From Sandaracinaceae bacterium (GTDB lineage: Bacteria > Myxococcota_A > Polyangia > Polyangiales > JADJQN01), in contig CANKOL010000014.1 in assembly GCA_947483975.1 (NCBI GenBank), positions 1 through 33,452 of the forward strand: DNA of 33,452 nucleotides, in the 5' to 3' direction. This document shows positions 7,903 to 22,521 of this stretch, piece by piece. Numbering within the stretch: the first letter of the stretch is position 1; the number at the start of each line of letters is the position of its first letter. The notes under the pieces are model-generated. The model was not told where the DNA came from. It searched no databases and worked only from the letters and a program-made list of their open reading frames with translations. Made by a program: the position numbers and the translations under genes.

Positions 7903-9222
7903 TCAGCGTCGCACGCCGGTGAACAACACGCAGACCGACTCCGTGGCGCCGAGTTCGCCCTTTCCAGAGAGTTCGAGCAGTCCTGCGAGTCCCGAAGAGC
8001 CCGTCGGGTCGACGTCGATGGTCGTCTCCGCGCGCCCGAGCGCGTTCGCCTCGAGCAGGCGCTCCTCGCTCACGACGAGCGGATAGCCGCCGCTCTCGAG
8101 CATGCCGCGCACGATGGCGAGCCAGTCATACGTCTCGTCATCCAGGATGCCGTGGGCGACGCTCTTCGGCTCGGTCTCCCACGGCCACATGAACTCGGCG
8201 CGATGGGCGGCGGCGTACGCGAGCGCCGCCTCGACGCCGTGCTCGTCCGCGCGCGCCTTCACGCGCTCCCACGCGCGCACGAGCGGATACCCGCCCTGCG
8301 TCTGCACCGCGTGAATCTTCGGCGTCGGCACGCTCACGCCGACGCGCGCGGCGTCGCGAAACGCCTGCACGCACGCGCTCGCGAGCGCGCCGCCGCCCAC
8401 CTGCACGAAGAGCCTGTCGAGCGTGCGTCCGCCCGCGAGCAGGTCGCTGATCAGCTCCCAGCCGAGCGTCTCGCCGCCCTCGACGGTGAGCCCGTGATCG
8501 CTGCCCTGACAGCAGAAGGGCACGGCGCCCTGCGCGACCGCTCGGCGGAACGCGTGATAGCAAGGGTCGCCCGCGACGCCCTCCTCGCGCACGCAGACGT
8601 TCACGCACGCGTCGAGCGACTGGAGCTTGGCGACGACGCGCGGGTTCGCGTCAGGCGGGATGAAGACGTCGAGCGGGCGCCTCCACGCGCGCGCGATCAC
8701 CGCCGCGGCGAGCGCCGCGTTGCCGCAGCTTGCGATGGCGAGGCGCGCGTCGGCGTCGGGCAAGATGCCGAGTCGCGCCTGCACCTCGCCGAGGATGGCG
8801 AGCCCCATCAGGTGCCGCCCCTTGTGCGATCCGGAGACGTTGCGCGTCTCGTCCTTTACCCACACGCCGCCCGGCGCGGCGAGGCGGACGGCGTCCGAGA
8901 GCCCGGCGCTCCGCGTCAGCGGCGTGACGACGAAGCCGCGCTCATCGACCGCGCACACCGCGTCGTCGAGCCCGCGCACGAGCGCGACGAAGTCCGCGTC
9001 GCTCATCCCGTGCGAGAGCGCGAGCGAGTGCGCGTGCGTGAGCGCGCGATAGCGAACGAAGGGGTTCGCCTCGTCATCGTGCGGAAAGCGCACGCGCGCG
9101 GCGTCGAGCGTGCGGCCGACCACGTGGTCTCCGCCATCCCGCCCGGCGCTCGGACACCGATAGATCTCCGCCGAATCGGCCGCGAGGGCCGCGCCGCAGC
9201 CCTGACACTCGAGCGTCGACAT
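7903..9222 (-). CDS. Fold-type-II PLP enzyme, threonine-synthase-like
   Basis: Start [10 protein letters not shown] (Zn-ribbon-like) at 9222, overlapping the upstream stop by 1 nt (TGATG); WVKDETRNVSGSHK (PLP Lys), ASCGNAA, VQVGGGAL, VCVLFTG. Confidence 0.88.
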   Translation of the reverse strand: MSTLECQGCGAALAADSAEIYRCPSAGRDGGDHVVGRTLDAARVRFPHDDEANPFVRYRALTHAHSLALSHGMSDADFVALVRGLDDAVCAVDERGFVVTPLTRSAGLSDAVRLAAPGGVWVKDETRNVSGSHKGRHLMGLAILGEVQARLGILPDADARLAIASCGNAALAAAVIARAWRRPLDVFIPPDANPRVVAKLQSLDACVNVCVREEGVAGDPCYHAFRRAVAQGAVPFCCQGSDHGLTVEGGETLGWELISDLLAGGRTLDRLFVQVGGGALASACVQAFRDAARVGVSVPTPKIHAVQTQGGYPLVRAWERVKARADEHGVEAALAYAAAHRAEFMWPWETEPKSVAHGILDDETYDWLAIVRGMLESGGYPLVVSEERLLEANALGRAETTIDVDPTGSSGLAGLLELSGKGELGATESVCVLFTGVRR

Positions 9223-19894: not shown

Positions 19895-22521
19895 CGGAAC
19901 GTGCTCCTGTCGCCCTTGAGGCGGCCGACGCTCATCGCGCGCGCCGCGGCGGAGTCCTTCATCGGCAGCGTCATGCGGCGGATTCCGTCGAACGCCTCGA
20001 GCGCGCCGGCGACGGCGCCCGCCGTCGGCACGAGCCCGATCTCTCCGACGCCCTTCGCCCCGAACGGCCCCTCGGGCTCGTAGTCCTCGATCAGGATGAC
20101 CTCGACCTCCGGCATATCGCGCGCTCGCAAGACGCCGATCTCGCGCAGCTTCGAGGTGACGGGCATCCCGTCGACGCACGGCAACTCCTCGGTGAGCGCG
20201 TAGCCGAGCCCCATGTGAATCGCGCCCTCGATCTGCCCCGTGCAGAGCGCCGGGTTCACCGCGCGCCCGACGTCGTGCGCCGCGATGAAGCGCTCGACGC
20301 GCCCGTTCTCGTCGAGGATGCAGACCTGCGTCGCGTAGCCGAAGGTCGTGTGCGTCTTGACCTTGGGCACGTCCTTGCCGAGCGGCGTCGTGTCGTCGAT
20401 CACGATGTCCGCGGCATACACGCGCCCGATCAGGTCGCGCACCGAGGCGCCGGTGTCGAGGTCGGCGCGCAGCTTGGTCGCGACCTCCTTCACGGCGCGC
20501 CCGCCGAGCAGCGTCGCGCGCGAGCCGGTCGTCTGCCCGCTCTGTAGCGCGAAGGTGGTGTCGACCTTCGGGCGGAACGTCGCCCCCGGGAGCCCCGTCA
20601 CCTCCGACGCGAACTGCGCGAAGATCGTCAGCAGCCCTTGGCCCATCTCCGTGAAGCCGTTGTAGAGCGAGATGCTCTCGTCAGCCTCGACGACGAGGCG
20701 CGCGCGCCCCCACTCCGCGACGCCGTTGCCGATGCCGCTGTTCTTCAGGCCGCACGCGATGCCGACCGCCTTACCCGCCGCCTTCGCCGCGTAGTAGCGA
20801 TCTTTCACGGCTTCCAGGGTCTTCCGGATACCGACGGATTTCTCCATCACCTGACCCGTCGAGAAGATGTCCCCGACGTCGATGACGTTGCGCTCGCGGA
20901 TCTCGTAGGCGTCGAGCCCGACCTTCTTCGCGAGCAGATCCAGGCAGCCCTCGAGCGCGAACGACGCTTGGTTCGCGCCGAAGCCGCGCATCGCGCCGCA
21001 CGGCGGGTTGTTCGTGTAGGCGGCGACCGCCTCGATGTCGACGTGGTTCACGCGGTACGGGCCGCACGCGTGCCCCGCGGCGCGCTCGAGCACCTTGCCG
21101 CCGACCGACGCGTACGCGCCCGAGTCGCCGAACATCCGCGCGCGCACCGCCGTCAGGCGCCCCTCGGCGTCGCAGCCCACCGTGTAGTGCATCTCGATCG
21201 GGTGCCGCTTCGGGTGCACGCGCACGGACTCTTCGCGCGTGAGCGCGAGCCGCACCGGGCGCCCGCTCAGCTTGGCGAGGAGCGCCGTCTGCGCCTGCAC
21301 GGACATATCCTCCTTGCCGCCGAACGCGCCGCCGTTCGGGACGAGCTCGACGTAGAGCTGATCCTCTGGGATCCCGAGAAAGCGCGCGACCTGCCGCTGG
21401 TCGTCGAAGATGCCCTGACCTTGCGTGTAGAGCGCCATGCGCCCGTCGGGGAGGGGCTCCGCGAGGGCGCACTCGGTCTCGAGGAAGAGATGCTCGATGC
21501 GCTGCGTCTGCCAGGTGCCGGAGACGACGTGCGCGCTCGCCGCGAGGGTCGTGTCTGCGTCGCCACGGCGGATGATCGAGCGCGAGAGCACGTTGTCGTG
21601 CTTCGGGTTCACGCGCGGGGCGCCCGGCGCGATGGACGTGTGCGGGTCGAGGACCGCGGGGAGCTTCTCCCACGTCGCGTCGATCAGCAGCACGGCGCGG
21701 CGCGCGGTCGCGACGTCGTCGGCGGCGACCGCGGCGATCACGTCGCCGACGCAGCGCGCCTCTTCGCCGACGGCGATGAAGCCCGGCCAATCCTCGTAGA
21801 GGATGCCGTTCCAGCGCTCGCCGGGGACCTCGGCTGCGGTCGCGACGGCGTGCACGCCGGGGAGGGCGCGCGCGCGGCTGACGTCGAGCGAGACGAGCCT
21901 CGCGCGAGCGTGCGGCGACAGCAGCAGCGCGCCGTGCAGCAGGCCCTCGCGCTTCATGTCGGCGACGTACGGTCGGTCCCCGAGCACGAGCTCTTTGCCG
22001 CGATACCGCTGGAACGACGCGCCGACGTGCGAGTCGGTGACGGGCGCGGGGATCTCCTCGCCGCGGCGCCCCTTCGCGATCAGCTCGACCGCGTCGATGA
22101 TCTTCACGTAGCCCGTGCAGCGACAGAGGTGCCCGTCGATGGCGCGCGCGATCTCGTCGCGCGTCGGGTTCGGGTTCTTGTCGATCAGGTGCTTGGCGCG
22201 GAGCGCGATCCCCGGGATGCAGAAGCCGCACTGCAGCCCCGCCGCGGCGAGGAACGCGCGCGCGGTCAGGTCGCGCTCTTCCGGCGACAGCCCCTCGAGG
22301 GTCAGCACGCTCTTGCCGTGCGCCTTCTCCGCCGAAGTCGCGCAGCTCGTCTTGGGCTGCCCGTCGATCAGCACCAAGCAGCAGCCGCACTGGCCTTGGG
22401 GTTGGCAGCCGTCCTTCGGCGAAGTGACGTCACAGCGCTCGCGCAGGGCGTCGAGCAGGGACTCGTCCGCGGCGACTTCGATGCGCCTTGGCTCTCCGTT
22501 CAGCGTGAACTCGACTGGCAT
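19891..22521 (-). CDS. xdh: Xanthine-dehydrogenase-family molybdenum hydroxylase, fused 2x[2Fe-2S] + Moco subunit (selenium-dependent Xdh-like)
   Basis: KDGCQPQGQCGCC, QCGFCIPG, CRCTGY; GGAFGGKE, GAMRGFG, GQG, TTGSR, GAKGVGE; ATG at 22521 with GGAGG RBS. Confidence 0.92.
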   Translation of the reverse strand: MPVEFTLNGEPRRIEVAADESLLDALRERCDVTSPKDGCQPQGQCGCCLVLIDGQPKTSCATSAEKAHGKSVLTLEGLSPEERDLTARAFLAAAGLQCGFCIPGIALRAKHLIDKNPNPTRDEIARAIDGHLCRCTGYVKIIDAVELIAKGRRGEEIPAPVTDSHVGASFQRYRGKELVLGDRPYVADMKREGLLHGALLLSPHARARLVSLDVSRARALPGVHAVATAAEVPGERWNGILYEDWPGFIAVGEEARCVGDVIAAVAADDVATARRAVLLIDATWEKLPAVLDPHTSIAPGAPRVNPKHDNVLSRSIIRRGDADTTLAASAHVVSGTWQTQRIEHLFLETECALAEPLPDGRMALYTQGQGIFDDQRQVARFLGIPEDQLYVELVPNGGAFGGKEDMSVQAQTALLAKLSGRPVRLALTREESVRVHPKRHPIEMHYTVGCDAEGRLTAVRARMFGDSGAYASVGGKVLERAAGHACGPYRVNHVDIEAVAAYTNNPPCGAMRGFGANQASFALEGCLDLLAKKVGLDAYEIRERNVIDVGDIFSTGQVMEKSVGIRKTLEAVKDRYYAAKAAGKAVGIACGLKNSGIGNGVAEWGRARLVVEADESISLYNGFTEMGQGLLTIFAQFASEVTGLPGATFRPKVDTTFALQSGQTTGSRATLLGGRAVKEVATKLRADLDTGASVRDLIGRVYAADIVIDDTTPLGKDVPKVKTHTTFGYATQVCILDENGRVERFIAAHDVGRAVNPALCTGQIEGAIHMGLGYALTEELPCVDGMPVTSKLREIGVLRARDMPEVEVILIEDYEPEGPFGAKGVGEIGLVPTAGAVAGALEAFDGIRRMTLPMKDSAAARAMSVGRLKGDRSTFR

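Follow-up and report, generated by a model that had tools for sequence, protein, structure and literature searches.

A co-conserved gene set in a Sandaracinaceae bacterium as a candidate hydrolytic variant of the reductive urate pathway

The Sandaracinaceae bacterium of assembly GCA_947483975.1 (Myxococcota) contains a block of seven genes that combines a molybdenum hydroxylase (Xdh), an SsnA-like amidohydrolase and a YgfK-like reductase with two carbamoylase-type hydrolases and two pyridoxal phosphate (PLP) enzymes. The gene set is real and co-conserved, and it most likely encodes, with a probability of roughly 0.6, a fully hydrolytic, Myxococcota-type and environmental variant of the reductive pathway for urate (the 2,8-dioxopurine pathway). 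This reading is supported by comparison, namely by the gene identities, by translational coupling, by co-conservation and by mutual exclusion with the set of YgeW, YgeY and carbamate kinase. The block lies in a stretch of 33,452 nucleotides, referred to here as the window, which is an entire 33.4-kb contig (C14, CANKOL010000014.1) of a 5.29-Mb metagenome-assembled genome (MAG) that is in 524 contigs, 81% complete and 0.6% contaminated. As the window DNA is about 70% G+C, many spurious frames are open, and the real frames were chosen by codon-position G+C (GC3). The relevant block spans positions 7903-22563, its seven genes falling into three translationally coupled groups. An earlier note on this DNA had listed the same seven gene types, all of which are present, and had closed the block at 22521, short of its actual end at 22563.

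In the published pathway, as described in two reports (Li et al. 2025, PMC12507026; Liu et al. 2025, bioRxiv 10.1101/2025.04.24.650524), urate is converted to 2,8-dioxopurine by XdhD-YgfM or XdhAC, YgfK reduces the product, and SsnA opens the ring to give ureidomethyl-hydantoin. HyuA then yields 2,3-diureidopropionate, YgeW and YgeY lead to diaminopropionate, and YgeX produces pyruvate (PMC12507026; 10.1101/2025.04.24.650524). According to Percudani (PMC12990295), the two papers are at odds over the ureido group that is removed by YgeW; 2,3-diureidopropionate is there likened to allantoate. Variants of this scheme are described by Li et al. (PMC12507026): in C. difficile, UacX is a reductase without the FAD (flavin adenine dinucleotide) domain and NAD(P)H module, and UacY, a D-aminoacylase homologue, carries out an irreversible hydrolysis in place of YgeW and carbamate kinase, whereas an F420-type reductase is proposed for Chloroflexota. 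The SsnA survey in that paper names Pseudomonadota, Bacillota, Chloroflexota, Actinomycetota, Spirochaetota and Elusimicrobiota, and Myxococcota is not among the phyla named in its text. A full-text literature search, which did not cover the supplementary tables of Li and Liu, returned no paper in which ssnA or ygfK is connected with a carbamoylase module of the nitrilase or M20 type, or with the phylum Myxococcota.

The window resembles the E. coli urate cluster (ygeW-ygeX-ygeY-hyuA-yqeA...ygfK-ssnA-ygfM-xdhD) in its molybdenum hydroxylase, YgfK-type reductase domain and SsnA-type amidohydrolase, in a predicted diureido intermediate that would be stripped in two steps, and in a fold-type-II PLP enzyme that would act last. 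Unlike the E. coli cluster, it has no YgfM FAD subunit and no HyuA within the cluster, an M20 carbamoylase and a nitrilase-type hydrolase occupy the place of YgeW, YqeA and YgeY, and two unrelated PLP enzymes are found where YgeX stands. The earlier note had seen no ygeW, ygeX, ygeY, hyuA or carbamate kinase gene in the window, and searches with protein families and with E. coli proteins agree, as they gave no match there for any of the five.

The Xdh gene (19891-22563, minus strand) encodes an FAD-less, fused [2Fe-2S]/molybdopterin hydroxylase of the XdhAC/DOPDH type. Its Pfam domains are Fer2, Fer2_2, Ald_Xan_dh_C (the hammerhead), MoCoBD_1 and MoCoBD_2, without FAD_binding_5, and it scores 902.1 bits against TIGR03311, above the cut-off of 830.45. 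In its lack of FAD and its domain build it is like C. sporogenes XdhAC (DOPDH), described as containing Fe-S centres and molybdenum cofactor (MoCo) and as being FAD-less and not using NAD(P)H (10.1101/2025.04.24.650524). The best match of E. coli XdhD in the Sandaracinaceae genome, on contig C55, is 4-hydroxybenzoyl-CoA-reductase-like (836 bits against a cut-off of 995) and is unrelated to the cluster.

Translationally coupled to Xdh is a short SsnA-like amidohydrolase of 384 residues (18740-19894, minus strand; Amidohydro_1), whose TTG start overlaps the Xdh stop codon (TTGA) and is preceded, 8 nt upstream, by AGGAG. It fits SsnA far better than any other family (268 bits against NF005540, cut-off 444, with the runner-up family at only 92 bits; 255 bits against TIGR03314, cut-off 455), but its scores stay below the curated cut-offs of the SsnA family (IPR017700/NF005540/TIGR03314). 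It is 35% identical to E. coli SsnA over 390 residues (E = 1e-60), and it is in turn the best match of E. coli SsnA in its own genome (35% identity, E = 7e-54). The protein is shorter than canonical SsnA by about 35 N-terminal residues; the HxH motif, H161, H188, H225 and D273 are unchanged across 17 family members. Its relatives number in the thousands, are 334-445 residues long and carry only the label of generic amidohydrolases.

On the same strand, and after a gap of 84 nt, follows an M20 amidase of the hydantoinase/carbamoylase family that is allantoate-amidohydrolase-like (17384-18655, minus strand). It scores 368.9 bits against TIGR01879, above the cut-off of 204, and 417.8 bits against NF006769, the allantoate amidohydrolase subfamily, below the cut-off of 452; its relatives in the PDB are an N-carbamoyl-beta-alanine amidohydrolase (8c46, E = 4e-80) and an L-carbamoylase (3n5f, E = 2e-75). 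Its substrate class is left undecided by sequence. The M20 stop codon overlaps the ATG (ATGA) of a gene for a nitrilase-superfamily carbamoylase of 314 residues (16443-17387, minus strand), which is absent from a plain list of open reading frames (ORFs) because its frame stays open upstream into the M20 gene. This protein matches CN_hydrolase (PF00795) with 135 bits (E = 3e-39), reaches no equivalog cut-off (124 bits against TIGR03381, AguB, cut-off 410), and has as its solved relatives beta-ureidopropionase (E = 6e-32, the best), N-carbamoylputrescine amidase (E = 8e-21) and D-carbamoylase (E = 1e-13). Its Glu-Lys-Cys triad, E64, K139 and C193, is invariant in all 22 orthologues that were compared. 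The nitrilase has a tie to the reductive pyrimidine pathway in being nearest to beta-ureidopropionases, and the models nearest to the M20 protein are allantoate amidohydrolase and N-carbamoyl-beta-alanine amidohydrolase; unlike in these systems, the two genes adjoin Xdh and the SsnA-like gene, not PreA or allantoinase, and their products score below the equivalog cut-offs. The pair fits a scheme in which the M20 enzyme would act on the 2-ureido group to yield albizziin and the nitrilase on the 3-ureido group. The reverse, with the nitrilase acting like a D-carbamoylase on the 2-ureido group, is also possible, and the sequences do not settle which hydrolase cuts which group.

The hydrolytic reading as a whole is supported by the wider distribution of the genes. 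A pattern scan anchored on the short SsnA-like gene, with one genome per species, gave 80 loci with up to 10 kb of flank on each side, all of them from MAGs and belonging to Myxococcota, Planctomycetota, Eisenbacteria, Thermoanaerobaculia and other Acidobacteriota, Gemmatimonadota and Betaproteobacteria, among others. Genes were counted by tblastn with the window proteins and with representatives of extra conserved families; the latter had first been picked up by clustering 820 GC3-filtered ORFs, a step that missed many real genes and from which no counts were taken. Many of the loci are cut by contig ends, and all locus counts are therefore lower bounds. Xdh is found in 63 loci, adjoining the SsnA-like gene, the PLP enzyme genes PALP2 and PALP1 in 50 and 42, the YgfK-like gene in 31, the nitrilase in 21 and M20 in 14. 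The commonest order is Xdh, SsnA-like, PALP2, PALP1. M20 orthologues of 62-73% identity lie after the SsnA-like gene in 11 of the 80 loci, and the window order of Xdh, SsnA-like, M20 and nitrilase is likewise repeated in 11 loci as well as in two further genomes, G275 and G125, the first of which (97% complete, 5 contigs) has the YgfK-like gene alongside. The recurring order, together with the overlapping stop and start codons, indicates that the arrangement is not due to chance, and the co-conservation that the earlier note had proposed as a check was thus found.

The extra families tie this core to the characterised pathway. YgeW-like genes are present in 18 loci, YgeY-like genes in 15, carbamate kinase in 11 and dihydropyrimidinase in 7, and NCBIfam models show these families to be authentic: their representatives score 519 bits for YgeY against a cut-off of 321, 383 bits for the YgeW-like gene against one of 453, 544 bits for dihydropyrimidinase and, for carbamate kinase, 348 bits, enough to pass NF009007. 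The E. coli proteins YgeW, YgeY and YqeA match 18, 14 and 10 of the 80 loci, with identities of up to 83%, 82% and 75%, which links the conserved core to the urate enzymes. The nitrilase and/or M20 are present in 22 loci, and YgeW, YgeY or carbamate kinase in 21, and no locus has both modules. Of the 46 loci whose flanks extend over at least 7 kb upstream and 8 kb downstream, 17 have the hydrolase type, 14 the YgeW type, 15 neither and none both (one-sided Fisher p = 0.0003). A tree of 67 SsnA-like sequences (the window and 66 loci, 14 having been excluded for a match of less than 300 residues or an internal stop) requires at least six switches between the hydrolase and YgeW-type states. The earlier note had proposed that hydrolases replace YgeW, carbamate kinase and YgeY, and comparison supports this proposal; its novelty is reduced, as UacY of C. 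difficile had already set a precedent for such a replacement.

A sample of 301 genomes from the phylum points the same way. An SsnA-like match is present in 84 of these genomes and PALP2 in 78, with 76 having both; 50 of the 51 genomes with a YgeW-like gene also have an SsnA-like gene. The nitrilase occurs in 8 genomes and the M20 orthologue in 12, and a cross-check of the lists by eye found a YgeW-like gene in none of these 12. Among the 30 genomes with a close SsnA-like match (E <= 1e-90), 5 have the nitrilase, 19 have YgeW, 6 have neither and none has both. In two genomes, an M20 orthologue (60-67% identity) adjoins a more divergent SsnA-like gene of about 46% identity (G287:C355:4764-8566 and G227:C88:21267-23635); neither genome has a YgeW-like or a nitrilase match, and G287 also has an adjacent PALP2-like gene (43%). 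This arrangement suggests an M20-only variant.

In three other genomes (G104, G189 and G289), the nitrilase and M20 genes lie in a separate, paralogous cluster without an adjacent SsnA-like gene (L110, G189:C294, 2825-10281, and also L111 and L112). This cluster consists of genes for a GntG-type PLP aldolase, an Xdh, a 441-residue protein, an M20 amidase and a nitrilase; it was noted in one genus of the phylum, has a second TIGR03311-type Xdh (858 bits), and occurs in genomes that also have YgeW. The 441-residue protein between Xdh and M20 has no NCBIfam match at E <= 1e-15; it was considered as a divergent SsnA and shows no similarity to it. The paralogous cluster may handle another heterocycle. 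Its existence suggests that an M20-nitrilase pair can serve other ring systems, and it brings up an alternative for the window itself: that its enzymes perform the same chemistry on another substrate, such as xanthine, 8-oxoguanine, a modified base or another N-heterocycle, as a sister pathway rather than for urate. This is consistent with the distance of the window proteins from the E. coli enzymes (35-38% identity and scores below the family cut-offs for the SsnA-like and YgfK-like proteins, 26% identity to XdhD and 30% to XdhA for Xdh) and with the lack of a urate permease gene in the window and of a match for E. coli UacT in the genome. Sister loci with the same core, however, carry YgeW, YgeY and carbamate kinase that are up to 83% identical to E. 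coli urate enzymes, and one locus has a UacT homologue (52% identity). The genome, moreover, has a separate xanthine dehydrogenase (XDH) that would supply urate and no other visible route for degrading it. Another substrate is thus unlikely, though it is the most probable of the alternatives weighed here.

The third component of the core is a trimmed YgfK homologue of 683 residues, here called mini-YgfK (10780-12831, plus strand), which combines the N-terminal substrate domain of YgfK with a C-terminal Fe-S piece. Against the 1012 positions of TIGR03315 it matches 5-417 (362 bits) and 912-985 (45 bits) with nothing between, for a total of 403 bits and a cut-off of 835; aligned with E. coli YgfK, it reaches 38% identity for residues 7-398 and 33% for residues 904-968. 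It is the best match of E. coli YgfK in its genome (38% identity, E = 3e-69) and carries Fer4 motifs. The region between the two matches corresponds to the NAD(P)H/FAD module, and the YgfK homologue listed in the earlier note is, unlike the E. coli enzyme, reduced in domain content and without this module. As a separately encoded NAD(P)H module, a match to residues 451-952 of E. coli YgfK on contig C104 was considered and rejected, since it is a fusion of PorC and GltD beside PorA and PorB. These genes (C104:6689-11096) encode a 2-oxoacid:ferredoxin oxidoreductase made up of PorB, PorA and a PorC that carries a fused GltD-like module for NAD(P) binding with Fe-S centres, which indicates that the organism has ferredoxin-linked pyruvate metabolism. 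Likewise rejected as a formate-type donor was the bis-molybdopterin guanine dinucleotide (bis-MGD) molybdoenzyme encoded at 12807-14834 on the minus strand, a gene inside the block and unrelated to the pathway genes: none of the 80 loci has a homologue at >=40% coverage, and the copy in genome G150 is only 29% identical. This protein of 675 residues is cytoplasmic, with an Fe4S4 domain from residue 4 and no signal-like N-terminus seen, its best family is formate dehydrogenase alpha (243 bits against a cut-off of 666), and its gene is convergent with mini-YgfK, their 3' ends overlapping by 25 bp.

The presence of a dearomatising reductase also bears on the clostridial "xanthinase" (Rabinowitz) route, in which Xdh would convert urate to xanthine, the amidohydrolase would cleave xanthine, and the M20 enzyme would hydrolyse 4-ureido-5-imidazolecarboxylate. 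TIGR03311 is indeed named selenium-dependent xanthine dehydrogenase, and an amidohydrolase with a ureido-hydrolase would fit the first xanthinase steps as given by Li et al. (PMC12507026). A YgfK-type reductase would be needless in a hydrolytic xanthinase route, yet it is co-conserved in 31 of the 80 loci; SsnA is the best family of the amidohydrolase, and sister loci contain YgeW, YgeY and carbamate kinase. The xanthinase cluster is reported by Li et al. (PMC12507026) from Clostridia and Bacilli, and it is on their summary that this route was judged. Such a route is to be considered very improbable for the window, and the least probable of the alternatives.

Divergently from mini-YgfK run the genes for the two PLP enzymes, PALP2 (9222-10712) and PALP1 (7903-9222), both on the minus strand, where the PALP1 ATG and the PALP2 stop codon share one base. 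PALP2 is a CysK/CBS-like fold-type-II enzyme of 496 residues (PF00291, 37 bits) with additional helical parts at both termini, and PALP1 is threonine-synthase/serine-racemase/dehydratase-like, has 439 residues (PF00291, 119 bits), and begins with a CxxC...C...H zinc-ribbon-like motif. The structure model of PALP2 (predicted local confidence, pLDDT, 93.2) has as its top folds cysteine synthases and cystathionine beta-synthase, enzymes of beta-replacement and beta-elimination, and that of PALP1 (pLDDT 92.7) has threonine synthase, serine racemase and threonine deaminase. In 40 sequences, the AHK lysine (K112) and the STGN and GSAGT loops of PALP2 are invariant, as is the GSHK lysine (K134) of PALP1, in which the phosphate-binding loops are kept too. 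The nearest clusters to PALP2 in the ESM Atlas are only generic PLP enzymes, and a prediction of the PALP2-PALP1 complex scored 0.00, which gives no verdict and speaks neither for nor against binding.

PALP1 nearly always lies directly after PALP2, and no other genes are linked as tightly to the SsnA-like gene as this pair. A search of the 80 loci with E. coli YgeX gave no match, BLASTP relates YgeX to neither PALP1 nor PALP2, and NF006058, the YgeX-type diaminopropionate ammonia-lyase family, is not among the matches listed for either. We infer that PALP2 and PALP1 take over the job of YgeX. The earlier description of two PLP lyase-like genes therefore stands as to their presence, and a generic view of them does not, since the pair is the most tightly linked and least understood part of the set. 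In 10 loci the five-gene order Xdh, SsnA-like, PALP2, PALP1, nitrilase (C-N hydrolase) is seen, and 8 of these have a single hydrolase. This would be explained if the pair possibly performed a beta-elimination from albizziin.

Outside the window, the genome offers no sign of the canonical genes. The best matches are 31 bits for ygeW and 25 bits for arcC, 61 bits for YgeY (cut-off 321) and 44 bits for YgeX (cut-off 276), with UacY (PF07969) outside the search, and tblastn with E. coli YqeA, YqeC and UacT (the only search made for YqeC) found no match in the genome. The possibility, raised in the earlier note, that complete genes for these steps reside elsewhere thus found no support in the available 81% of the genome. 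OHCU (2-oxo-4-hydroxy-4-carboxy-5-ureidoimidazoline) decarboxylase and HIU (5-hydroxyisourate) hydrolase are not found above cut-off in the genome either, so that there is no sign of an oxidative urate route. On contig C64 (4441-10034), a single-polypeptide, eukaryote-like XDH of about 1410 residues (Fer2, FAD_binding_5, MoCoBD) is followed by a second M20 gene and by an XdhC/CoxI-like gene. This FAD-containing XDH is probably the urate-forming enzyme, and its presence indicates that the organism can probably make urate.

Contig C66 (8650-17757) contains a reductive pyrimidine operon of PreT, PreA, dihydropyrimidinase, methylmalonate-semialdehyde dehydrogenase and an aminotransferase, which runs into panB-panC. 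Its dihydropyrimidinase, which scores 585 bits and shares 38.5% identity with E. coli HyuA, is the sole hydantoinase candidate in the genome, and a dihydropyrimidinase is found above cut-off in all 5 other carrier genomes checked, which is compatible with a hydantoinase that would be supplied in trans. No beta-ureidopropionase gene is present in this operon, and this gap could be filled by the M20 enzyme and/or the nitrilase of the window, if these served mainly in pyrimidine breakdown and their position by Xdh and the SsnA-like gene reflected shared regulation or accident. The best solved relatives of the nitrilase are beta-ureidopropionases, and N-carbamoyl-beta-alanine amidohydrolase is among the M20 relatives, as such a role would predict. 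It is nonetheless improbable: the coupled M20-nitrilase pair follows the coupled Xdh and SsnA-like pair on the same strand at a distance of only 84 nt, this order recurs in other loci and in G275 and G125, and a pyrimidine role does not explain the mutual exclusion with YgeW and YgeY. The second M20 amidase on C64, of the same family (419 bits) and 44% identical to that of the window, could itself serve pyrimidines, and pyrimidine and urate roles are in any case compatible with each other.

The environmental form may also differ from the gut pathway in its need for selenium. The gut carriers in a strain library all have YqeBC and SelD, and DOPDH from a selD mutant is inactive (10.1101/2025.04.24.650524). 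YqeB has no match in the Sandaracinaceae genome and none in 8 carrier relatives that are 95-100% complete, which sets these genomes apart from E. coli and from the C. sporogenes pathway with YgfK (DOPOR). For SelD, all that the genome shows is a match of 48.5 bits, below cut-off, where a contig ends, and 7 of the 8 relatives have it above cut-off, with one in-frame TGA in six of them (G275, G125, G165, G150, G230 and G249), which is consistent with a selenocysteine-containing SelD. As a lead, the environmental Xdh may mature differently from the gut enzyme. In two Eisenbacteria loci, a SufS-like cysteine desulfurase (L038 1800-3600, L042 1189-2760) lies beside a cluster of carbamate kinase, YgeW, YgeY, Xdh, SsnA-like and YgfK genes; it could be a helper in MoCo sulfuration or in Fe-S assembly.

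In the hydrolytic urate pathway proposed here, the FAD-less Xdh would turn urate into 2,8-dioxopurine by removing its 6-oxo group, and mini-YgfK would dearomatise the ring of this compound with electrons from a ferredoxin-like donor. The short SsnA-like amidohydrolase would then open the six-membered (pyrimidine) ring of dihydro-2,8-dioxopurine, and a hydantoinase encoded elsewhere, probably the C66 dihydropyrimidinase, would open the hydantoin ring to yield 2,3-diureidopropionate. Each of the two coupled carbamoylases would hydrolyse one ureido group of this intermediate, and PALP2 and PALP1, in the place of YgeX, would convert diaminopropionate (or albizziin) to pyruvate and ammonia. As hydrolysis would replace both the phosphorolysis by YgeW, which yields ATP through carbamate kinase, and the YgeY step, neither carbamoyl phosphate nor ATP would be produced; the gut form in C. 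sporogenes gains ATP via YgeW and YqeA, which the window form could not.

Several points weigh against this proposal. We infer each of its steps from homology and context, and the SsnA-like and YgfK-like proteins score below the curated family cut-offs. No gene of the cluster accounts for the hydantoinase step, the sole candidate for which resides in a pyrimidine operon on another contig, and no candidate emerged for the electron donor of Xdh or mini-YgfK. Absences from the Sandaracinaceae genome are weak evidence, given the fragmented and incomplete MAG. Neither de-ureidation module is visible in 37 of the 80 loci and in 20 (by arithmetic) of the 84 genomes with an SsnA-like match, and the loci of the nearest relatives (L009 and L010) have no M20 or nitrilase gene in the short stretch of DNA available after the SsnA-like gene. 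Of the 8 genomes that match the nitrilase, G104 and G189 (51-53% identity) also have a YgeW-like gene, although their nitrilase lies in the paralogous cluster. Finally, the genomes are related and not independent, so that the Fisher p value for the 46 long-flank loci overstates the case.

The proposed variant has a precedent in that of C. difficile, which shares the reductase without an FAD/NAD(P)H module (UacX) and the hydrolysis that replaces YgeW and carbamate kinase (UacY), and hydrolytic replacement is consequently not new in principle. The enzyme families are different: UacY belongs to Amidohydro_3 (PF07969) and UacX is a PydA homologue (PF01180), whereas the window has hydrolases of the M20 (PF01546, carbamoylase type) and nitrilase (PF00795) superfamilies and a trimmed YgfK. 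The novelty lies in these recruited enzyme families, in the PLP pair, in the trimmed reductase and in the missing YqeB.

The window has some further features. Inside the block lies a gene for a VWA/TSP3 protein (14903-16420) that is unrelated to the pathway genes. Directly downstream of PALP1, a block on the same minus strand (2270-7868), which includes unannotated ORFs and may be a separate system, encodes a MadB-family AAA ATPase (6927-7868; NF047784, 353 bits, below the cut-off of 475), a radical SAM (S-adenosylmethionine) protein (4439-5791) and a TPR (tetratricopeptide repeat) protein (2270-3343), all on that strand. On the other side, a PAS-GGDEF ORF (25156-27045, minus strand) and a CysK-type cysteine synthase ORF (26339-27943, plus strand) overlap by about 700 bp; the CysK domain starts at residue 226 of its ORF, and the true start is probably near 27000. 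No riboswitch or other Rfam RNA was found in the window at gathering score.

The reductive breakdown of urate, worked out as recently as 2025, has been presented as a trait of anaerobic gut bacteria that depends on selenium and yields ATP. Together with its relatives, the window points to a second form, an environmental one, in MAGs of Myxococcota, Planctomycetota, Acidobacteriota, Gemmatimonadota, Eisenbacteria and Betaproteobacteria, in which de-ureidation modules, phosphorolytic or hydrolytic, are swappable and an unstudied PLP pair is found in the place of YgeX. Taken together, and held only tentatively as a conjunction that is itself doubtful, bacteria from soil and fresh water, belonging to six or more named phyla, may run an O2-independent route from urate to pyruvate that is independent of YqeB, is driven by a ferredoxin-type donor and not by NAD(P)H, and ends in a new PALP2/PALP1 lyase system that replaces YgeX and maybe eliminates ammonia or urea directly from diaminopropionate or albizziin; the myxobacterial form would be fully hydrolytic, having recruited nitrilase-type and allantoate-amidohydrolase-type enzymes to 2,3-diureidopropionate. 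The set offers candidate enzymes, predicted from sequence, for the hydrolysis of 2,3-diureidopropionate and albizziin, and a possible selenium-cofactor-independent 2,8-dioxopurine dehydrogenase that would be of interest for engineering urate-degrading strains. The two modules would also constitute a natural experiment in energy conservation versus irreversibility, in which the hydrolytic form, if the proposal is true, gives up the ATP yield for irreversibility and the release of nitrogen.

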